Source: Escherichia phage LPEK22
Length of the DNA: 64,000 nt
Sequence record: OK283619.1
Direction: 5' to 3' (one strand)
Under the pieces are notes generated by a model. That model was not told where the DNA came from. It did no database searches and saw only the letters and a program-made list of their open reading frames with translations. The position numbers and the translations under genes were made by a program. Positions 4,729 through 50,015 of the stretch are shown in pieces (the stretch's first letter is position 1; each line of letters opens with the position of its first letter).

Positions 4729-4742
4729 AATATTCAATAAAA

Positions 4743-4760
4743 GGGGCAAAAGCCCCTTTA
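4743..4760 (+). terminator. terminator hairpin merging into promoter -35
   Basis: GGGGC-AAAA-GCCCC followed by TTTAC. Confidence 0.5.
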
Positions 4761-4784
4761 CTTCTTCAATAACCCACGTATAAT
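4757..4784 (+). promoter_or_regulatory. sigma70-like early promoter TTTAC-N17-TATAAT
   Basis: TTTAC (about 4757) and TATAAT (about 4779), then conserved leader before ATG 4833. Confidence 0.5.
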
Positions 4785-4832
4785 TCTAAACATAAGCAGT
4801 ACGACACCAACTTGAAAAGCAGGAACTACATT

Positions 4833-5108
4833 ATGAAAATCATCCTCGACGCATATATCCGTTACGGCAGCAAATGGTTGATGGCCAAAGTTTACGACGG
4901 TGAAGAATTAGTCCACGCCCAAACCGCCCCTTCTGAACAATTGCGTGAAATTATGAAACGCGATTTTCCTACTGCTGAAATGATTGAACCTGCCAACCAA
5001 ACCGAAGTTGACAAAGAATGGGAACGCGAATGGAGTCCGGCGGCGTTGGCACAATTTGATAAGAATTACAACAATCGCCAAAACGCGTCTCGCCCGTTCC
5101 GTCGTTAA
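4833..5108 (+). CDS. hypothetical small protein; start placed at ATG after conserved leader AGCAGGAACTACATTATG
   Basis: Downstream of terminator-promoter cassette; AGGA Shine-Dalgarno 8 nt upstream. Confidence 0.5.
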   Translation: MKIILDAYIRYGSKWLMAKVYDGEELVHAQTAPSEQLREIMKRDFPTAEMIEPANQTEVDKEWEREWSPAALAQFDKNYNNRQNASRPFRR

Positions 5109-5186
5109 GAATAAAGGGGTGTTAGCATCCCTTTCTTTTCGCTAATTAAGGGAAACCGCACCGATTTTATAATCAGGAGAATTACA

Positions 5187-7568
5187 ATGGCCATCCCATC
5201 TTTCTTGAACTTTCTTGAAGAGTCTAAACAATTAGACGAAGCGTTTAACTCATCCCCGTATGAATTGACATTCGGCAAGAAGAACGCTGGCGACATTTTC
5301 TTCACATTTGTTGATGAAGACGAAAAAGAATTCCGCATCCAATTTTATACCCCGCAGGGGCTGGGCAAGAACGTTCGTCAGGTCTTCATAGGCCAGAAAC
5401 GTGGTTCGACCTATCCAGACGCAATCGGTCGTTTCAAAAACCCAATGCGTGTCATCGCATCCATGATCGAAGCAACAAAGCAATTCATGGCGACGCCTTT
5501 GGGGAAAACCATTGACGGCTTTGCAATTAACTTCTCCAAGAAAGCATTGGAACGTGGTGTTACCCTCCTGCCGAAGATCATCCGTCAGTCCGGCCTGAAG
5601 CAGAAGCTCAATGTCATGGACCTGACGTATACCCCTATCCCTGATCGTGCATTCGTATGGGTTGTGCGTAAAGGTAAGGATCCTGCTCAGGTATTCGATG
5701 GTCCGAAAATGAAAGGCGTGACTTGGGACGACCCAGACAAAGTCGGTGACGTTCCTGACCAGAAAAATAATCCTGATGTGGGTGTATCATCTTCTGTTGA
5801 TGATTCCAACGGCTGGAAATTAACTTCAGACGGGAATCAGCCTATGATGATATGGAGTGGTAGAGAGAAAGGTCGCTTAGTCACGGCAAATATCGCCCCT
5901 CACTACAATGAGCCTGGTGTGTATGTTGGTGCCTACATGAATGAGAAATCTGTGCGCGGACAAAGTGCTGATTTTATTGCTCGTCAGTTGAAATTACCGC
6001 AAGTCCCTATCAGTATCCTGAATGATTTTACCACGGCGTCCACAAAATTCTGGAAAGGTTCTCAACAGAAATCTGCGCCTGTAGATTCCAACACCACAAT
6101 CGGTGCAACCAGCATCGAACAACTGATCGACAGCGGTTTCGTCGCCCGTGTGTTGGGTATCATTGATACCAACATTGATCAGAAAGCAAGCTACCTCCCA
6201 GGAGAAAGCATTAAGAAAATCGGACAGGCGCGTTATCAAACCAAAGGCGGTCTAGTGATCATTGTCAGCTTCGATTCGGTCGACGGTAAGAATCTGAAGT
6301 ACAGCGTGTTCTCTGAGATCGAAACTCAACCTGGTGTCATCTCTGGTGATGCTCGTCGGGTGGCAAACGAAGTCATGGAAACCATCACATACGTGGCTGA
6401 ACATCAGTATCGCGGTGAATGGGAAATCAACGCAGTGCCGATGAGCGCTCCATACCCTATCAAGTCCATCCGTCATTCTCGGGGCTGGGGCTATGTAGAG
6501 ACCGCAAATTGGACTCTGAAAATAGCCGATGCGGTTCTGAATCGCGTGAAACCAGGGAATACCGCTCTGTTGGAACTCAACAAAGAGCCTCTGCGCGGCA
6601 AGCACCTTCTGGAAATCATTCCAGAGAAGGGCGACAAGACTCTGATGCTAAAAGATCGCAGCGGAGCCATCTACGGTTCCATTGATCTGAATGCTCAGGG
6701 TGCGGATCTGGTCAACTCCGGAACCCTGAAAATCCCGAGCAACGCCATGGTATTTGGTGAGACTGTTAATGGTATGTCTGTCACATGGACTGGCGTCAAT
6801 TTCCCGAAAGGCGGGAAGTATGACGGCGCGGTGTTGACAACTAATGTGACCTATTACTACGACAAAGGTAAAGTAGCATTCACTCCGATGGTCTCTAACA
6901 AAGGTCGCACCCTGAACAATCCGAAAACATATGAACTTCCTTTGAAGAAAGAATTTGTTCAAGGTGTTCTTGATGATACCTCTGACGAGATGAGTATGGT
7001 GACGAGGAACATGCAGACCCTCGTCAGCACGAATTACAACCCGAAACAAGTCTTCCTCAATGATATCTACGTGGACGACAGCGGCGCGGTGCTCTGGCGC
7101 GGCCACAACATGGGTGATCGCCGTACGACAGAGATCATGCTAAACGCCATAAGCAAAGAAACCGAACGTCTGGAAAAAGAACCAGGGACTACCAAGAAGA
7201 CGGGTGTCGACCTCGCAACATATGCTGGTTCTATCCGCGACAATGCTCCGAAAGGGCGCGATCTGGATTGGCAGATCTATGCAAGCCGTGATGGTCAAAC
7301 ACTGAACGTGGACTGGGATATCACTTTCCGTCGCAATACGACCGAAGGAGCATATCGTGAATTCAAGGATCAGATCAACCGTGCCAACCAATACCTGCAA
7401 ACGGTATACAACGACGCGAAATCTAAAGGCTATAATCCTACCGTGCCAAATCTCATGACTCTTGAACGCGCTCGCCAATCCGACGAATGGGCTGTGAGTA
7501 ATGGTGATAGTGCATACAGTGAATATGAACAATCGCTGGGTGGTAATCTTCAGATTAGTCTGAAATAA
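5187..7568 (+). CDS. large hypothetical protein (793 aa)
   Basis: Long ORF with AGGAGA SD; no motif recognised. Confidence 0.6.
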   Translation: MAIPSFLNFLEESKQLDEAFNSSPYELTFGKKNAGDIFFTFVDEDEKEFRIQFYTPQGLGKNVRQVFIGQKRGSTYPDAIGRFKNPMRVIASMIEATKQFMATPLGKTIDGFAINFSKKALERGVTLLPKIIRQSGLKQKLNVMDLTYTPIPDRAFVWVVRKGKDPAQVFDGPKMKGVTWDDPDKVGDVPDQKNNPDVGVSSSVDDSNGWKLTSDGNQPMMIWSGREKGRLVTANIAPHYNEPGVYVGAYMNEKSVRGQSADFIARQLKLPQVPISILNDFTTASTKFWKGSQQKSAPVDSNTTIGATSIEQLIDSGFVARVLGIIDTNIDQKASYLPGESIKKIGQARYQTKGGLVIIVSFDSVDGKNLKYSVFSEIETQPGVISGDARRVANEVMETITYVAEHQYRGEWEINAVPMSAPYPIKSIRHSRGWGYVETANWTLKIADAVLNRVKPGNTALLELNKEPLRGKHLLEIIPEKGDKTLMLKDRSGAIYGSIDLNAQGADLVNSGTLKIPSNAMVFGETVNGMSVTWTGVNFPKGGKYDGAVLTTNVTYYYDKGKVAFTPMVSNKGRTLNNPKTYELPLKKEFVQGVLDDTSDEMSMVTRNMQTLVSTNYNPKQVFLNDIYVDDSGAVLWRGHNMGDRRTTEIMLNAISKETERLEKEPGTTKKTGVDLATYAGSIRDNAPKGRDLDWQIYASRDGQTLNVDWDITFRRNTTEGAYREFKDQINRANQYLQTVYNDAKSKGYNPTVPNLMTLERARQSDEWAVSNGDSAYSEYEQSLGGNLQISLK

Positions 7569-7619
7569 GTCATAGCCCCTTCGGGGGCTAAATACATCAA
7601 AATCCTTAGGAGATCCACG

Positions 7620-8447: not shown

Positions 8448-8478
8448 TCCCCCTAAATACAGGGGGATTTTCTTTTTA
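8448..8478 (+). terminator. rho-independent terminator
   Basis: ATCCCCCT / GGGGGAT stem followed by TTTCTTTTT. Confidence 0.6.
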
Positions 8479-10823: not shown

Positions 10824-10848
10824 AGGCCTCATTCTACGAGGCCTTTTA
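10824..10848 (+). terminator. rho-independent terminator
   Basis: AGGCCTC / GAGGCCT stem followed by TTTT. Confidence 0.6.
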
Positions 10849-10888
10849 AAATACTTCAAAAATAATTTAAAAATTTATTGAAAAAGAC

Positions 10889-10917
10889 TTTACTCTTCAA
10901 TAATCATGCACTATTAT
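10889..10917 (+). promoter_or_regulatory. sigma70-like promoter TTTAC-N18-TATTAT with AT-rich upstream element
   Basis: AT-rich tract 10850-10888, TTTAC, TATTAT; drives gene 10995. Confidence 0.5.
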
Positions 10918-10994
10918 AGTTCACATAGGGCGGTACACAACACCCCGCCGAATGAAAAGTGAAACGACCCAACTACATTATGAGGAATTACATC

Positions 10995-11483
10995 ATGGCT
11001 ACTACCAAAACTCTGATCACCAACGGCACCATCTCTTTTGAACTGAACACCGAAGTTGCAAAAGTTGAAATGTTCCGCATCGCTCAGGCAGCTGGCTTCA
11101 CTGGTGGCAAAACTTCCTTCATGAATCTGCTGAACGGCAAAGTGAAAGCGACCAACGGCTTCACCCTGGTAGAGCAGGTTGTCGTAGACAAAGCCGTGGT
11201 TGCCAAAACTGCTGACAAGGTTGGCATGCTGAAAGACCTGGGCCATGACATCCACGTTGTCGAAGCGAACACCGAAACTTACGGCACCATCGTAGTCGGC
11301 AAAGGCCGCATTCAGCTGAACCCGCTGAACAACGGAACCTTCTCCGTGATGGTATTCCCGAAAAAGGGTTATGACAACAGTGATATCGTGAAAGCGGCTG
11401 GTGGCGAAGCAAAAGCTCAGTACGTCAAAATGGGTAAACTGACCGCCAAAGACGTTCAGACCCTGGTAAGCAAACTGGCTTAA
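10995..11483 (+). CDS. hypothetical protein (163 aa), likely abundantly expressed
   Basis: Strong promoter with AT-rich upstream element, GAGGA SD, host-optimal codons (ctg, ggc, aaa, ccg), terminator immediately downstream. Confidence 0.55.
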   Translation: MATTKTLITNGTISFELNTEVAKVEMFRIAQAAGFTGGKTSFMNLLNGKVKATNGFTLVEQVVVDKAVVAKTADKVGMLKDLGHDIHVVEANTETYGTIVVGKGRIQLNPLNNGTFSVMVFPKKGYDNSDIVKAAGGEAKAQYVKMGKLTAKDVQTLVSKLA

Positions 11484-11489
11484 TCGAAA

Positions 11490-11518
11490 GGGGGGGGGGG
11501 GAAACTCCCCTCCTTATT
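11490..11518 (+). terminator. poly-G (12 nt) / CCCCTCC hairpin, terminator-like
   Basis: G12 tract, AAACT loop, CCCCTCC, then TTATTC. Confidence 0.45.
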
Positions 11519-11542
11519 CAGATTTTTGGTAGGAGATTCAAA

Positions 11543-11665
11543 ATGGACGAAGAAGTTCTGTATTGCCCGCATTGTGGTTCGGAAATGGAATTTGAAGACG
11601 GTGATTGCCCGCATTGCGGTGAGCACATGGACTCCTGGAAAGATAGTGAAGGAGACGACGAATGA
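11543..11665 (+). CDS. small zinc-ribbon protein (40 aa, MDEEVLYCPHCGSEMEFEDGDCPHCGEH...), not in ORF track
   Basis: Two CPHCG motifs; AGGAGA SD 6 nt upstream; ATGA overlap with next ORF. Confidence 0.4.
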   Translation: MDEEVLYCPHCGSEMEFEDGDCPHCGEHMDSWKDSEGDDE

Positions 11666-11859
11666 CCGCATACGAAATGTGCATCAACAACATCGCATTC
11701 ACTTTGTTCAACCGCAACCCGAACATGGTGAACTCAAGCCCCCCGAGCGCATTCGATTTCTCCCTCGGGCTGGCAGTGGGGTTCTGTAAGGACGCTCAGG
11801 AAGTGGTGATGGACATCGCCGCTGCCGTCGCTAAACTCCAGAGGGAGGAAGCAGCATGA
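11662..11859 (+). CDS. hypothetical protein (65 aa)
   Basis: ATGA-coupled chain. Confidence 0.35.
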   Translation: MTAYEMCINNIAFTLFNRNPNMVNSSPPSAFDFSLGLAVGFCKDAQEVVMDIAAAVAKLQREEAA

Positions 11860-17624: not shown

Positions 17625-17633
17625 TCTTTCAAA

Positions 17634-17660
17634 GCCCCTCAATGAGGGGCTTTACTTTTG
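17634..17660 (+). terminator. terminator hairpin merging into promoter
   Basis: GCCCCTC-AAT-GAGGGGC followed by TTTACTTTT. Confidence 0.55.
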
Positions 17661-17679
17661 AAACCTTTCCGCCTATACT
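17651..17679 (+). promoter_or_regulatory. sigma70-like early promoter TTTAC-N18-TATACT
   Basis: TTTAC and TATACT spaced 18 nt; conserved leader follows. Confidence 0.45.
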
Positions 17680-17730
17680 TCCCAGTAATTTATTGGCAAA
17701 CGCCACAAATTGAATAGCAGGAACTATATC

Positions 17731-17964
17731 ATGACCAACTCTGAAATATATCATGCTTCTATGCATTATCACGACCTACGCGCCCGTCCAGGACACGCAA
17801 AACAAAAAGCATTCTGGGTGGCAGAACTCAGATTACGCCGTGCTGTCGTTAACCACCAAATAATCATGAATCGGAAAAACGACAAATCACCGTTGTTGGC
17901 AGATTCTTATCTTGAACTCCGCACAGCCTATGAACAAGCCAAACAGCACGTAATAGGAGCATAA
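17731..17964 (+). CDS. hypothetical small protein behind conserved leader AGCAGGAACTATATCATG
   Basis: Terminator-promoter cassette upstream; leader near-identical to that of the 4833 gene. Confidence 0.45.
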   Translation: MTNSEIYHASMHYHDLRARPGHAKQKAFWVAELRLRRAVVNHQIIMNRKNDKSPLLADSYLELRTAYEQAKQHVIGA

Positions 17965-20838: not shown

Positions 20839-20892
20839 TAGTCAATTAGAATCATGTGATATTTATGGCGGGGATTTGAAATCTGTCGAATA

Positions 20893-20925
20893 ATATATTA
20901 TAGGAAGCTCTGCTTCCGTTCAACC
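20893..20925 (-). promoter_or_regulatory. candidate promoter for gp5-like gene with palindrome in spacer
   Basis: Minus strand TTGAAC-GGAAGCAGAGCTTCC-TATAAT about 45-75 nt upstream of ATG 20838. Confidence 0.35.
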
Positions 20926-21165
20926 TTTATTCTTTTCGTTCCTACTCGCTGAAGCTCGTAACACCGCCTTGACAGGCAGTCCCATTCCAATGCCATGGAG
21001 GCATAAAGGCGAGGAAAATACTGTACACCTCAGAACATGCGTAGAAAAGGATTATTTTTGCTTCAAAACAAATTCAAACCCCAATTACACAACACTTACT
21101 TCAGCAACAACGGTGTTATAGCAATTTAAGGTTAAACGTTCCTGTCTTAACCTATAAAACAGGTA

Positions 21166-21193
21166 AGCAAAGAAAACCCCACATTACGTGGGG
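21166..21193 (-). terminator. rho-independent terminator (minus strand)
   Basis: Minus strand CCCCAC-loop-GTGGGG followed by TTTTCTTTG. Confidence 0.55.
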
Positions 21194-21344
21194 TTGGAAG
21201 ATTTCTTAGACAATCTAATTTTCAGTGTCTCGGTAAGCAAATCAAGATGCCACGGCATCGATTCACTGATTTCAAATATGCTATAGCCGTGTGCCTTTAA
21301 TTCGTCACACATCACAAAATAGGAGAGTAAATCAATTTCAAAAA

Positions 21345-23188: not shown

Positions 23189-23237
23189 TCCGGTCTAAAT
23201 ACCCATAACACAATGAAACTTCGTTATGGGTATTTTT

Positions 23238-28820: not shown

Positions 28821-28898
28821 TATTCACGCCAGTCCGCGCTGATACAGCGTTCCGTTGTCTAACACAGAAGTGTTAACCAACTTTTCAATAAAAAGTGG

Positions 28899-28926
28899 TT
28901 TACATCTTCTAAAAAGGCAGTATATT
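28899..28926 (+). promoter_or_regulatory. sigma70-like promoter TTTAC-N17-TATATT
   Basis: Preceded by TTCAATAAAAA box; upstream of gene 28994. Confidence 0.45.
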
Positions 28927-28993
28927 AATGTTCCAGACGCACAGTTGAACATTAGACTGCCAAAGAAGGTTACTACACAAAAGGGTTTTTATT

Positions 28994-29953
28994 ATGTCCT
29001 ATATTCTTCATATCGAGTCCGGCCTGAAATTTGAAATTGATGGTAAAACCGCTGCTGATCTTCAAGCAGAAATCAAAGGTGCAGACCTTATCATCGGCAA
29101 CGTCACGTTACGCCGTATGATGGAAGGCGTCCTCCAGTCAGCCAATGGCTTTGAACTCATCGAAGGTCTGAGCCAGGAAGAGAAAGAAGAGACTCTCGAA
29201 GCTCTTGACCGCGCTGAAGCCGAAAAAGTTAAACCGACCGAAGATGCGGGGGTTAAACAGGGCGACGGTGAATCAAATCCGGTGATTGACGCCGAAGAAA
29301 CGGTTGGGCAACCTGTCGGTGATCAAAATTCCCAGACCGTCGAAGACGGTTCTCTTGAAGTCAACAAAGACGGTTCCATTTCCCTGGTAGTTGAAGGCGA
29401 AGAAGTTCTTGACGAAGAAGCGCAAGCCCGTGCTGAAGAAGTTCGCCGTCGTATGCTGGGCACAACCGTTGCTGAAGCAATCGCCGACGTTGAAAATCCG
29501 AAGGATGATCAGGCTTTAGCGAACGCGAAGGCGGTTCTGGCCAAGAAATCTTCTGAAATGCGCCCTGCATCTTCTACCGAAGAACGCAAGCGTCGTCATA
29601 ACAAGCGTGAAGAAATGGTTGAAGCGGCTCGCGCATCCAATTATGGTCCTATCCTGGCTGCGGTTGAATCAGGGGTTGTGCCTGGGGTTTATTTGAGCTA
29701 TGTGAATCCGGATATGCGCTGGTTCCAGTTCCCTGTTACCGAACTGGCAGATGAAGCCAATCCACACGCCCGCACCAATACTTATGTTGATCTGGCGCCA
29801 ATCGTTTCCGGCGGCTGGGGGTTCAGTCTGTATGTGAATGGTAAATCATTCACCAAACGCCAGAAAATCAAAGAAACCGATGCCGAATCTCTGGTGAAAG
29901 CAATCAATGAATGGTTGCCTCAGGCGTTGGCCGAAGCGAAAGCTGCTGCGTAA
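28994..29953 (+). CDS. acidic hypothetical protein (319 aa)
   Basis: ORF downstream of TTTAC-N17-TATATT promoter; Glu/Asp-rich central region. Confidence 0.5.
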   Translation: MSYILHIESGLKFEIDGKTAADLQAEIKGADLIIGNVTLRRMMEGVLQSANGFELIEGLSQEEKEETLEALDRAEAEKVKPTEDAGVKQGDGESNPVIDAEETVGQPVGDQNSQTVEDGSLEVNKDGSISLVVEGEEVLDEEAQARAEEVRRRMLGTTVAEAIADVENPKDDQALANAKAVLAKKSSEMRPASSTEERKRRHNKREEMVEAARASNYGPILAAVESGVVPGVYLSYVNPDMRWFQFPVTELADEANPHARTNTYVDLAPIVSGGWGFSLYVNGKSFTKRQKIKETDAESLVKAINEWLPQALAEAKAAA

Positions 29954-36186: not shown

Positions 36187-36249
36187 CTTCAATAATGGTG
36201 ATCATAGGGTATAATCTCTATGATCTGAATATTAACCCAGGAGCACATC

Positions 36250-36897: not shown

Positions 36898-36906
36898 TAT
36901 CGGTTA

Positions 36907-36930
36907 AAGCCCAACATTTGTTGGGCTTTA
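36907..36930 (+). terminator. terminator hairpin merging into promoter
   Basis: AAGCCCAAC-ATTT-GTTGGGCTT followed by TACTT. Confidence 0.5.
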
Positions 36931-36971
36931 CTTCAATAAAACTTTACTTCAATAAAACTTGCGGCTATCAT
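36926..36971 (+). promoter_or_regulatory. tandemly duplicated promoter -35 region: 2 x CTTTACTTCAATAAAA, then TATCAT
   Basis: Exact 16-bp direct repeat; second TTTAC is 18 nt from TATCAT. Confidence 0.45.
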
Positions 36972-37014
36972 TTAACCTACATTGAAAAGTTTCACTACAT
37001 CATGAGAGGCAAAA

Positions 37015-38208
37015 ATGAAAGCCAAGACCTTCAGCATCCCAATTGATAACATTGGTCGTGTCAAGGAACGTCTTGCCAAACTTGAAAGAACGGCAAACCG
37101 CCTGAAACTCGAGTTCCCTCTTGTTGAGTTCAGTGAACCATACAAAACACAACACCGCGATTCTATCACTGGCGAAAAATTTTATCGTTGGTGGCAAGAT
37201 TGTACTCTAACTGGTGAAGGCATCGACCGCCCCGTTTCTTATGGTGGGTGGAGTATCATTGGACAATTCAACCACCAGTATCCAAAAGTCATTCTGAATA
37301 AACTGTCAGATGACATCCACCCAAATTTCGTTCAAAGATTTGAAGCTGAAAACGTATCTTGGTGCGAGCATTGCAACAAATCTGTGCGTCGTCATAACAC
37401 ATATGTCGTTCGTAACGAACAATCTGGCGCACAGATGCTCGTGGGTAGCAGCTGTATGCATCATTATGTCCCGCATCAGAAATCCCTTGATGCGGTTATG
37501 TCTTATTACATGTCTATTCACGAAATGTTTACCCCCGATGAAGATGACCCAGAAGGGATTTATCGGGTTAATGAACCAGATTATGTTGACACAGAAGGAT
37601 ATTTGTGTAAATGTTTTCAGGTTTTGCTGTCCGGCCTGAGCATTAAAAGTGATGATTTTGGTCGGGTTCTTGGTCATATCTCTAGCGGCACTCGTCCGGA
37701 GAAAGGTTCTGACATTGAGATATTCTATAACAAGGCTGTTAAAGCCCGTGAAGATGCTCAATCAGAGATGTATCATATGATGCTTTTCATCGCATCGTTG
37801 TCTGAAAATAACGATTTCAACGTCCGGCTGAAACGTATGTGCGAACCTGGTTATCACCTTGTTAAAGACTCAACAACAGTTCGTTGGGGAGCAGCAAAGT
37901 ATTATGATTATATCCACACCCCCCGCCAAACGCGCACTGTATCAAATTGGGTTGGTGAAGTTGGTGAAATGTTAGAAGCACAGGTCAAATTTGAAGCAAG
38001 GATTTTCCTGTATTCATCTGATTATGGTGACACGTATCTGTATACTTTCAAAACCAAGGAAGGCAATACCATTACATGGAAGACTTCCTATATGGAAACC
38101 GAGTTTTTAGAAGGCGATATGATCATTCGAGGTCGTGTCAAAGAATTGACCGAATTCAAAGGTATTAAACAAACTCAGATTACAAGGGCAAAACTGAGGA
38201 AATTATGA
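37015..38208 (+). CDS. hypothetical protein (397 aa) with Cys/His cluster
   Basis: ORF after tandem promoter; WCEHCNKS...SSCMHHY. Confidence 0.55.
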   Translation: MKAKTFSIPIDNIGRVKERLAKLERTANRLKLEFPLVEFSEPYKTQHRDSITGEKFYRWWQDCTLTGEGIDRPVSYGGWSIIGQFNHQYPKVILNKLSDDIHPNFVQRFEAENVSWCEHCNKSVRRHNTYVVRNEQSGAQMLVGSSCMHHYVPHQKSLDAVMSYYMSIHEMFTPDEDDPEGIYRVNEPDYVDTEGYLCKCFQVLLSGLSIKSDDFGRVLGHISSGTRPEKGSDIEIFYNKAVKAREDAQSEMYHMMLFIASLSENNDFNVRLKRMCEPGYHLVKDSTTVRWGAAKYYDYIHTPRQTRTVSNWVGEVGEMLEAQVKFEARIFLYSSDYGDTYLYTFKTKEGNTITWKTSYMETEFLEGDMIIRGRVKELTEFKGIKQTQITRAKLRKL

Positions 38209-38734: not shown

Positions 38735-39088
38735 ATGCGCAAATATTTTAACTGGTTGTTGGGGAAACCCCTAAGCGTCGAAATCCGTTGTCTTATTGAT
38801 GCCATCGACGCTGATGACGTTGAATGGAATGGTGAACGCTTTGTCGGTATCGATGCTGTCATCTATAACGGCGTAAGGGTATGTGCATATACAGTCAATA
38901 GCAGCGCAGGGTATAGAGTCGATATCGGTTTTTGTTTCGATTGTCTGCCATACCATGAGGCCAAGGCCGTGTATAAAGCGCTCACCCGACATCACAGGCG
39001 TCGGATTAATCGTGAAGCAATTCAGGTCGATACATATGACCGTGAAAAAGTCCGCAAAGCTCTGGGGTGTCACAATGTCAAAAGTTGA
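38735..39088 (+). CDS. hypothetical protein (117 aa)
   Basis: Coupled chain. Confidence 0.45.
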   Translation: MRKYFNWLLGKPLSVEIRCLIDAIDADDVEWNGERFVGIDAVIYNGVRVCAYTVNSSAGYRVDIGFCFDCLPYHEAKAVYKALTRHHRRRINREAIQVDTYDREKVRKALGCHNVKS

Positions 39089-39494
39089 AATCCAATGCAA
39101 ATGCTGTCCGAACAAGAAGATGGTTCGCCAGGCCGACATTGACCGTGGCTGGGGGTTGTTCTGTTCTAAGTCTTGCGCCGCCTACTGGAAGACCTTTGGG
39201 TGTCGTAAAGATACCCCAACAGACCTGTCCCTGAATGGCAAGCGACCTAAATCGGCGCAGGCAATCCTTTCTGATTTGCGGAAAGAGTCTGTCCGCCTTT
39301 CTGCTGGCCTCACTGAAGAGCAGATGGACAAACTCAATAAGGCGGGTTGTGGTCATATCCGATTCGACGGAATGGACTATCCTCTGTTCAGTTCTCGCCA
39401 GCTCAGAGTCCTTGGGGCTTCAAAGGCTGAGATAAGAGAAGCTGAACGCGATGAAGCCGAAGAGGGCGCATACGGCCATCACGATTTTCAATAA
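39075..39494 (+). CDS. Cys-rich putative zinc-binding protein (139 aa)
   Basis: CKCCPNKK...CSKSCAAYW; internal ATG of track ORF 38883..39494. Confidence 0.45.
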   Translation: MSKVEIQCKCCPNKKMVRQADIDRGWGLFCSKSCAAYWKTFGCRKDTPTDLSLNGKRPKSAQAILSDLRKESVRLSAGLTEEQMDKLNKAGCGHIRFDGMDYPLFSSRQLRVLGASKAEIREAERDEAEEGAYGHHDFQ

Positions 39495-39541
39495 ACGATT
39501 TACCCATATAATGCATGGGAACTTTACAGAAGGATCAGACT

Positions 39542-41386: not shown

Positions 41387-41410
41387 CGGGGTTCTTCGGA
41401 ACCCCATTCA
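41387..41410 (+). terminator. terminator-like hairpin after ligase gene
   Basis: GGGGTTC-TTCG-GAACCCC followed by ATTCAATAAA. Confidence 0.45.
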
Positions 41411-41459
41411 ATAAAGACAGTAGCAGTATAATTCCAAGAAATCATTACCAGGTGTTATT

Positions 41460-49955: not shown

Positions 49956-49987
49956 GTTTGTCTCTCCCAATAAATTAAGGGGAAGTA

Positions 49988-50015
49988 TACCTTCCCCTTT
50001 CTTCAATAACCTAAA
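49988..50015 (-). terminator. rho-independent terminator (minus strand)
   Basis: Minus strand GGGGAAG-loop-CTTCCCC followed by TTAATTTATT. Confidence 0.5.

Follow-up and report, generated by a model that had tools for sequence, protein, structure and literature searches.

The 64,000-nucleotide (nt) stretch of Escherichia phage LPEK22 analyzed here (OK283619.1; called the window below) contains repeated intergenic cassettes of about 100 bp in which a terminator-like hairpin, an early-type promoter, and a short leader with a ribosome-binding site succeed one another up to a start codon, an arrangement resembling the promoter-early stem-loop (PeSL) elements of T4-type phages. Structure, copy number, and recombination signatures support the assignment of these elements to PeSL-type cassettes in a new family, and we consider it probable that they are composite regulatory units exchanging open reading frames (ORFs) by recombination within patches of homology. 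T4-type phages are already known to have elements of this kind; for Ackermannviridae, our literature search found no description of these motifs or of PeSL-like cassettes. With 97 to 99% identity to the Salmonella phages Se-B, ps4, and kage over 25 kb (megablast), the window is, judged by its sequence, a segment of a Kuttervirus genome (Ackermannviridae, ViI-like phages).

The gene map of the window was obtained by transferring the annotation of phage kage, whose numbering the gene names (k81, k82, and so on) follow; intergenic DNA accounts for 6.6% of the window. Window proteins were mapped onto the primase gene region of 22 genomes and the gp41 helicase gene region of 22, the L-numbered loci including IMG/VR genomes (L025 is UViG_2974667786; L028 is UViG_2974516482), and the whole kage genome was assembled from pieces and scanned for cassettes. 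Chance expectations for motif counts come from dinucleotide-shuffled sequence. Two classes of promoter-like site are distinguished: class I cassettes with a TTTAC(T/A) -35 box and a TATAAT-like -10 box, and class II sites, in which a TTCAATAA box precedes a -10 box without a -35 box.

Five intergenic class I cassettes in the window follow a common plan: TTTAC(T/A), a spacer of 16 to 17 nt, a TATAAT-like box, and a leader of about 45 nt. A GC hairpin abuts the promoter in three of them, lies 45 nt upstream in one, and is missing from one; the folding free energies (dG) of these hairpins range from -12 to -17 kcal/mol, with z scores of -3.6 to -6.2. A shared 23-nt ribosome-site module, termed the translation initiation region (TIR) module and having the consensus TGAA-NN-G-N-AGGAA-N-TAYATYATG, closes the leaders of both cassette 1 and cassette 2. 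The preliminary description of this DNA had placed copies of such a plan at 4741-4835 and 17631-17733, a related copy at 10824-10997, and further promoters at about 28899 and 36943. The sequence bears out the first two at these coordinates, and the further promoters are present as TTTACA/TATATT and TTTACT/TATCAT; in the related copy (cassette 3), the promoter and leader stand, but the hairpin does not run into TTTAC. The proposed spacer of 17 to 18 nt is right when counted from the pentamer TTTAC and shrinks to 16 to 17 nt from the hexamer TTTACT. Likewise, the leaders had been called near identical, which is true of their last 35 nt, where cassettes 1 and 2 agree at 30 of 35 bases (z = 11), but not of the promoter spacers and 5' leader parts, which are dissimilar. 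Cassette 3 aligns to the other cassettes through its AT-rich stretch, -35 box, and TTCAATAA box (z = 5 to 12).

The preliminary description had staked its reading on motif frequencies exceeding those of shuffled sequence, and every motif does lie above expectation. TTTAC-N16-19-TAWNMT occurs 7 times in the window against 2.0 expected, a count reached in 1 of 100 shuffles. The 18-mer leader end AGCAGGAACTAYATYATG has two exact copies and one with three mismatches (0.10 expected), and the longer 23-nt module TGAANNGNAGGANNTAYAYYATG has two (0.03 expected). A strict version of the leader end, GGArNTAYAYYATG, precedes only 7 of the 209 kage genes, 5 of these 7 being cassette genes. The most enriched intergenic octamer of the window is TTCAATAA, with 19 copies against 4.9 expected and 11 of the 19 in intergenic DNA, and its reading as a chance AT-rich word was rejected on these counts. 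All nine positions previously listed for this box fall within 5 nt of true copies (4733, 4765, 10896, 28884, 36188, 36932, 36948, 41407, and 50002); the copy at 39487 and an inverted copy at 10875-10882 are additions to that list.

The cassettes are paralogous within a genome and conserved between genomes. Phage kage carries nine class I cassettes, with 49 to 83 nt between the -10 box and the ATG (49 to 59 nt in six). Full-length alignments (~105 nt) link cassette 1 to two copies in kage, one at 37.5 kb with z = 25 and one at 148.7 kb with z = 19, and the blocks common to them include positions without a consensus role, such as the spacer TTCTTCAATAA and the block CATAAGCAG. The 22-base core TTTACTTCTTCAATAA-N6-TATAMT has 49 matches in IMG/VR: 44 in Ackermannviridae genomes, with 2 to 3 per genome in every genome matched, 2 on contigs of a distant relative, and 3 chance matches in unrelated AT-rich sequence. 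The core occupies three orthologous positions: site A follows k81, site B is at kage 37.5 kb, and site C adjoins the DNA polymerase gene. The latter two fall outside the window and are both found in the Se-B contig, whose gene content matches that of the window.

The site A cassette is conserved in Kuttervirus, Taipeivirus-like, and Limestonevirus-like genomes and is more conserved than the flanking coding ends; upstream of k82 it is kept in place in ten IMG/VR genomes, down to 75% identity of the k82 protein. Its hairpins have variable loops, and one stem shows a compensatory change from GGGGC/GCCCC to GGGAC/GTCCC. At the glutaredoxin site (cassette 2), the stem has been swapped wholesale between genera, yet it remains complementary and always abuts TTTAC in per-sequence folds; a consensus fold of this hairpin has only 2 compensatory pairs, MAFFT having misaligned the phiMAM1 stems. 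The leader blocks CATAAGCAG and TGAA...AGGAAC are conserved across genera. Cassette 3 is conserved in LIMEstone1 and phiMAM1. The box, -35, and -10 of cassette 5 are conserved in Kuttervirus and Limestonevirus-like loci, and Taipeivirus and phiMAM1 retain its -35 and -10 without an intact TTCAATAA. Cassette 4 contains a tandem repeat of TTTACTTCAATAAAAC, annotated as a repeat_region in phage kage, of which the orthologs in other genera have a single copy. Conservation in multiple copies is thus found but is uneven, since cassettes 1 and 2 share only their last 35 nt.

What happens to the genes behind a cassette that stays in place? Five unrelated ORFs start at the ATG of the site A cassette among the 22 genomes: k82 in eight loci, and elsewhere four others whose products begin MTKTELNN, MNAIKTDF, MTQLKNFT, and MTTVTGFY. 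These five cargos belong to five different PHROGs, all of unknown function, and their occurrence among the genomes does not follow primase identity; k82 itself occupies 5 of 10 Kuttervirus loci and 8 of 22 loci in the family. The same cargo can stand behind leaders with differing 3' ends (for example, in L020 and L025), and one leader end can precede differing cargos. Behind cassette 2, k96 is present in 10 of 22 genomes, and four cargo families occur at site B and three or more at site C. Among the first genes behind the window cassettes, k82 and k96 are variable and k125 marginally so; k89 (22 of 22 genomes) and k114 are constant. A tblastn search for homologs of the cargos elsewhere in the same genome found none. 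As a separate observation, k83 (5187-7568, 793 amino acids [aa]), directly downstream of the site A slot, is hypervariable: among 10 Kuttervirus loci, a single one reaches 90% identity or more, the others having a version with 54 to 77% identity or lacking it, and it is absent from several genera.

Several loci preserve traces of how cargos may have come and gone. At the glutaredoxin site of L028, an extra ORF lies between two complete cassettes, and at that of L031, an extra ORF lies between a collapsed copy without a -10 box and a full cassette. Shigella phage Ag3 carries a cassette followed in turn by k82, TAATTTGAACCGAAGGAACTATATCATG (a second TIR module), and the MTQLK ORF, so that the k82 cargo is flanked by direct repeats of the TIR module; were these repeats to recombine, cargos would be lost or swapped precisely at the ATG, as is observed. 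A looser TIR-like sequence ending in GTG lies 3' of the k82 homolog of Serratia phage phiMAM1. This homolog (40% amino acid identity) resides at site C, in a polymerase-divergent locus, behind a near-identical cassette that reads TTTATTGAA...TTTACTTCTTCAATAA...TATTAT...CATAAAGCAG...CTTGAAACGAAGGAACTAC. In the Limestonevirus-like L102, a cassette with a distant homolog of the MTKTEL cargo (30% identity) is inserted between the tail sheath and tail tube genes; the inserted unit has terminators on both sides and a promoter plus leader identical to Kuttervirus site A over about 50 nt, and its cassette is chimeric, with an upstream half of type C and a downstream half of type A. Together with a 12-nt leader block of type A at site B of Taipeivirus-like genomes, this chimera indicates exchange between paralogous cassettes. 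The gene-content comparison among relatives, with its cargo swaps and its duplicated, mosaic, and non-orthologous cassettes, thus supports the earlier proposal of PeSL-like modules spreading by copy and paste.

A further collapsed cassette lies outside the window at about 149.39 kb in kage (149370-149400), where the hairpin passes straight into a TIR module, GGGGGCTTACTTTGAACTGAAGGACTATATTATG, without a -10 box, as if the promoter had been deleted by recombination at a short TTGAA repeat. The next gene, at 149558, has another TIR-like module (149530-149560).

In T4-type phages, PeSL elements, each roughly 100 bp in total, combine a stem-loop, a strong sigma70-like early promoter, a Shine-Dalgarno sequence, and an ATG; a genome has repeated copies, clustered in hyperplastic regions, and recombination from one copy to another removes ORFans there or brings them in (PMC2839356, PMC4122927). 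They are known from RB49/phi1, T4/PST, and KVP40/nt-1 (Arbiol et al. 2010, PMC2839356; Comeau et al. 2014, PMC4122927). In T4/PST, their consensus reads TTTACW-N17-TAYWAT; elements reduced to a "half" and variants with a Mot box (PmSL) have also been described (PMC2839356, PMC4122927). Promoter and terminator activity and the formation of cassette-bounded mini-circles during infection also count among the marks of PeSL elements, the circles being assayed by inverse PCR on infected cells or virions (PMC2839356). The cassettes of the window share with them the intergenic composite of stem-loop, early promoter, Shine-Dalgarno sequence, and ATG within about 100 bp, the AT-rich stretch upstream, and a -35/-10 consensus close to the T4/PST type, as well as several conserved copies per genome, degraded "half" copies, small neighboring ORFs without known function that differ between relatives by insertion, deletion, or replacement, and crossovers between the -10 box and the ATG. 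The recombination signatures comprise tandem (L028), collapsed (L031 and kage 149.39 kb), mosaic or chimeric, and non-orthologous cassettes. Qualitatively, the glutaredoxin site and sites A, B, and C place a cassette beside variable genes, although within the window this association is not significant. Unlike PeSL elements, these cassettes belong to Ackermannviridae, which are only distantly related to T4, and they are few, about nine per genome, with the full core at only three sites. Here, moreover, the hairpin usually abuts the -35 box, so that the terminator T-tract is itself the -35 box; a family-specific TTCAATAA box lies in the spacer or upstream; and a separate 23-nt TIR module is repeated before successive cargo ORFs. 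[quoted passage not shown] Morons, however, are not thought to move via conserved flanking regulatory repeats, whereas near-identical repeats are shared here.

In the mechanism we propose, the GC-rich intrinsic-terminator hairpin would stop transcription coming from the upstream gene, and its T-tract would double as the -35 element (TTTACT) of a T4-early-type sigma70 promoter with a TATAAT-like -10 box. This promoter would drive an unstructured leader of about 45 nt ending in the conserved TIR module, and each cassette would provide a small gene without known function with an insulated setting for early expression. Near-identical cassettes and TIR modules, within one genome and between co-infecting relatives, would serve as homology patches, in which recombination could insert, delete, or exchange the ORFs behind the cassettes, as described for PeSL. 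What we infer here is that promoter, terminator, and ribosome site are active, that expression is early, and that exchange proceeds by homologous recombination. Several points weigh against this proposal. The literature search found no transcription start, termination, timing, or expression data for Ackermannviridae, so promoter and terminator function is deduced from consensus. Part of the leader identity is accounted for by the genome-wide ribosome-site consensus aGGAatAtATcATG, and with only about nine cassettes per 158-kb genome, the repeats are few. Within the window, a variable gene follows 2 to 3 of the 5 cassettes, compared with about 13 variable ones among the 47 other genes, a difference that is not significant, and the variable genes k76-78, orfX1-3, k127, and k129 are not beside a class I cassette. 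L027 and L028 appear to have imported a whole RegB-k81-cassette block from a Limestonevirus-like donor, and allelic exchange of cargos could take place via conserved flanking genes alone. The phage DNA reportedly carries hypermodified thymidine, which may bear on the recognition of these T-rich boxes. Could the cassettes then be ordinary terminators, promoters, and ribosome sites that have converged on a functional consensus, with each copy maintained independently and gene turnover proceeding past them by homologous recombination in conserved flanking genes or by illegitimate events? The ribosome-site consensus already resembles the leader end, 3 of the 5 window cassettes precede conserved or nearly conserved genes, the block that L027 and L028 seem to have gained came with its cargo, and the k83 leader, conserved on the right side of the slot, would permit replacement mediated by flanks. 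We nevertheless regard convergence as unlikely, since the identity covers the spacer and the CATAAGCAG block and extends over about 100 nt at z = 19 to 25, the junctions fall exactly at the TIR module or the ATG with the same cargo showing different crossover points, extra ORFs are flanked by duplicated cassette copies, related cargos stand behind the same cassette at non-orthologous loci, and the L102 cassette joins halves of two types.

Selection on operators, with TTCAATAA bound by a transcription factor and the TIR module by a repressor such as a RegA homolog, is another way in which cassette identity could be kept, one compatible with recombination between cassettes, and we hold it as a possibility short of an even chance. 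It would fit the rank of TTCAATAA as the top intergenic octamer, enriched also in the phiMAM1 and LIMEstone1 loci, its fixed spacing of 6 or 12 to 14 nt ahead of the -10 box and its placement as an inverted pair around the -35 box, the near constancy of cassettes whose cargo proteins drop to 30 to 40% identity, and the RegA-like and RegB-like proteins encoded by phage kage. The protein binding the box is hypothetical, however, the TIR module has no obvious likeness to the RegA site of T4, and operators alone leave duplicated cassettes, ATG-precise replacement, and non-orthologous placement unexplained. Homing endonuclease genes inserting into intergenic regions and co-converting their neighbors, without recombination between cassettes, seem a very improbable source of the pattern. 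One such event is plain in L025 (18088-19025), where an ORF for a 266-aa HNH homing endonuclease lies exactly at the -35 box of cassette 2, with TTTACTTT on both sides and k96 lost; 14 homing endonucleases have been reported for LIMEstone1, and where L102 has its cassette and cargo, at the sheath/tube junction, kage carries a GIY-YIG gene. But an endonuclease gene occurs in only 1 of about 20 slot variants, and the five site A cargos and the extra ORFs of L028 and L031 are not endonucleases, falling into PHROGs of unknown function. To the idea that the leaders are structured cis-regulatory RNAs (attenuators, thermometers, or riboswitches) we give almost no credence, despite the conservation of CATAAGCAG and the TGAA...AGGAAC module across genera: the leaders fold no better than shuffled sequence (z = -0.9 to +1.3), and no Rfam family matches anywhere in the window at gathering thresholds. 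The idea was rejected on these grounds, which argue that the leaders are open translation-initiation regions.

The TTCAATAA box also occurs away from the cassettes, in class II sites. In the strongest cassettes, it lies 6 nt upstream of the -10 box as part of the TTTACTTCTTCAATAA core, and the distances from box to TAWWMT in kage are bimodal, with six sites at 12 nt and three at 6 nt. Some cassettes also have an inverted copy, TTATTGAA, immediately upstream of the -35 box, which is then bracketed by a TTATTGAA...TTCAATAA pair. The combination TTCAATAA-N11-14-TAWWMT is found 3 times in the window (36188, 39487, and 41407) against 0.03 expected. Inspected by eye, the class II sites have no recognizable -35 box at proper spacing and no TG extension; the -10 box often sits within a hairpin loop and lies 33 to 72 nt before the ATG (33 to 42 nt in all but one). 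Those of kage are at 1403, 49567, 59884, 137162, 140156, and 144772, with TATAAT or TATTAT as the -10 box. At the site upstream of k123, the hairpin GATCATAG...CTATGATC encloses the -10 box in its loop. Across the range from Kuttervirus to phiMAM1, the box and the -10 there hardly change, apart from single-base variants of the box in L055 and phiMAM1, and the spacer and stem vary with compensatory changes. A class II site is also conserved upstream of MAM_018, and TTCAATAA is enriched in the fetched loci of phiMAM1 (7 against 1.1 expected) and LIMEstone1 (9 against 1.2 expected). As a candidate canonical -35 box, it was rejected: the hexamer TTCAAT would give a 14-nt spacer, and the sites show no other -35.

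We tentatively suggest, as one possible reading that we would not yet favor, that TTCAATAA is the recognition site of a DNA-binding regulator, phage encoded or recruited from the host, that switches early to middle expression. If so, a box 12 to 14 nt upstream of the -10 would substitute for the -35 and define a middle-type promoter class without MotA/AsiA, and a box in the spacer, or two inverted copies on either side of the -35, would turn the strong early cassettes off. T4 middle promoters depend on MotA/AsiA and have a Mot box, TGCTT, at about -30 along with a -10 box (PMC4122927; Hinton 2010, as cited in PMC3184105). Class II sites resemble these promoters and the PmSL in having a conserved box 12 to 14 nt upstream of a TATAAT-like -10, no -35, and often a stem-loop, but the box is TTCAATAA rather than TGCTT, and MotA and AsiA homologs have been reported absent from ViI-like phages (CBA120 paper, PMC3184105). 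Both classes also recall promoter-coupled terminators, described as a general feature of bacteria (Fletcher et al. 2026 preprint, 10.64898/2026.08.19.745784), in that terminator and promoter overlap and the same DNA ends the upstream unit and starts the next. The construct in the preprint, however, takes the -35 from stem-loop DNA and the -10 from right after the T-tract, whereas here class I uses the T-tract as the -35 and class II has its -10 in the hairpin loop; nor is it a repeated exchangeable cassette there.

Two further observations concern these sites. The class II site at 39487 lies at the right edge of a 466-nt stretch (39076-39541) that lacks a counterpart in kage and, read in frame, holds a putative Cys-rich ORF; kage instead has a 1.4-kb insert (kage_131-133) between k130, a "ligase fragment," and the ligase gene. 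At 49979-50009, between k145 and k146 in a block of minus-strand genes, the box is turned the other way: the minus strand reads TTATTGAA, 12 nt, TATACT, this -10 box being enclosed by the loop of GGGGAAGG...CCTTCCCC; either activity of the box in both orientations or a plus-strand antisense promoter would account for this.

The Ag3 and CBA120 papers on related phages listed about eight generic sigma70 matches, the latter stating that early promoters were not identifiable by informatics (PMC3184105), and the LIMEstone1 paper predicted 5 early, 5 middle, and 33 late promoters in silico. The present comparison offers a candidate early-promoter consensus for the family, TTTACT, 16 to 17 nt, TATAMT, often as TTTACTTCTTCAATAA-N6-TATAMT, and a candidate second promoter class, TTCAATAA-N12-14-TATAAT. 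It would extend the PeSL model beyond the T4-like subfamily and add the detail that short ribosome-site repeats between cargo ORFs can act as crossover points. Cassettes would mark the slots at which small early genes are exchanged, the likeliest places for host-takeover or anti-defense functions, and, as Kuttervirus phages are used in biocontrol and therapy, such turnover loci matter for engineering and for judging genome stability. The wider importance hinges on whether TTCAATAA marks a new transcription-control system. Coordinates of the window features are collected in Table 1.

Table 1. Cassettes, class II sites, and associated features of the window (position 1 is its first nucleotide)
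Feature	Position	Strand	Basis or detail
Cassette 1 (site A), intergenic between structural gene k81 and ORFan k82	4729..4835	+	sequence
Cassette 1, upstream TTCAATAA box	4733-4740	+	
Cassette 1, terminator-like hairpin AAAGGGGC-AAAA-GCCCCTTT	4740-4759	+	dG -13.6 kcal/mol, z = -3.6
Cassette 1, -35 box TTTACT	4757-4762	+	begins with hairpin T-run
Cassette 1, spacer TTCAATAA box	4765-4772	+	
Cassette 1, -10 box TATAAT	4779-4784	+	
Cassette 1, conserved initial transcribed block CATAAGCAG	4791-4799	+	
Cassette 1, TIR module	4813-4835	+	ATG at 4833
Cassette 1, cargo slot	4833..5134	+	k82 and its own terminator hairpin
ORFan k82	4833-5108	+	PHROG 5704, function unknown
Terminator hairpin 3' of k82	5113-5134	+	
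Cassette 2, intergenic between glutaredoxin gene and ORFan k96	17625..17733	+	sequence
Cassette 2, hairpin	17631-17653	+	dG -16.6 kcal/mol, z = -4.3
Cassette 2, -35 box TTTACT	17651-17656	+	
Cassette 2, -10 box TATACT	17674-17679	+	
Cassette 2, TIR module	17711-17733	+	ATG at 17731
Cassette 3, intergenic between k88 and k89	10824..10997	+	sequence, fold
Cassette 3, hairpin	10824-10844	+	45 nt upstream of -35 box, not abutting
Cassette 3, inverted box TTATTGAA in AT-rich stretch	10875-10882	+	
Cassette 3, -35 box TTTACT	10889-10894	+	
Cassette 3, TTCAATAA box	10896-10903	+	
Cassette 3, -10 box TATTAT	10912-10917	+	
Cassette 3, small hairpin within leader	10928-10949	+	
Cassette 3, ATG codons	10980 and 10995	+	
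Cassette 4, intergenic between k124 and k125	36906..37017	+	k125 ATG at 37015
Cassette 4, hairpin	36906-36929	+	dG -16.9 kcal/mol, z = -6.2
Cassette 4, tandem duplication of TTTACTTCAATAAAAC	36927-36942 and 36943-36958	+	
Cassette 4, -35 box TTTACT	36943	+	
Cassette 4, -10 box TATCAT	36966-36971	+	
Cassette 4, leader with TTGAAAAG...ACTACATCATG		+	
Cassette 5, upstream of k114	28884..28996	+	ATG at 28994; no hairpin abutting promoter
Cassette 5, TTCAATAA box	28884-28891	+	
Cassette 5, -35 box TTTACA	28899-28904	+	
Cassette 5, -10 box TATATT	28921-28926	+	
Class II site between gp41 helicase gene and k123	36188..36225	+	TTCAATAA, 14 nt, TATAAT
Class II site upstream of k130	39487..39512	+	TTCAATAA, 12 nt, TATAAT
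Class II site after ligase gene, upstream of k135	41388..41432	+	hairpin GGGGTTCTTCGGAACCCC, TTCAATAA, 12 nt, TATAAT

A few minor features lie elsewhere in the window. A stretch of 506 nt without an annotated gene (20839-21344) separates the gp5-like hub/lysozyme gene from the baseplate hub gene, both on the minus strand. After k89, a run of 13 G residues (11489-11501) forms one arm of a hairpin at the left edge of the orfX2/orfX3 insertion (11526-11859), which is found in 1 of 10 Kuttervirus loci, with orfX3 in 5 of 22 loci in the family; this homopolymer could be prone to slippage or sensitive to assembly. As a late-promoter candidate, CTAAATAC was not significant in the window (3 copies against 1.2 expected); its copies at 7588-7595, 8453-8460, and 23195-23202 lie just upstream of k84, the structural gene k85, and a RuvC-like gene, once in a hairpin loop.

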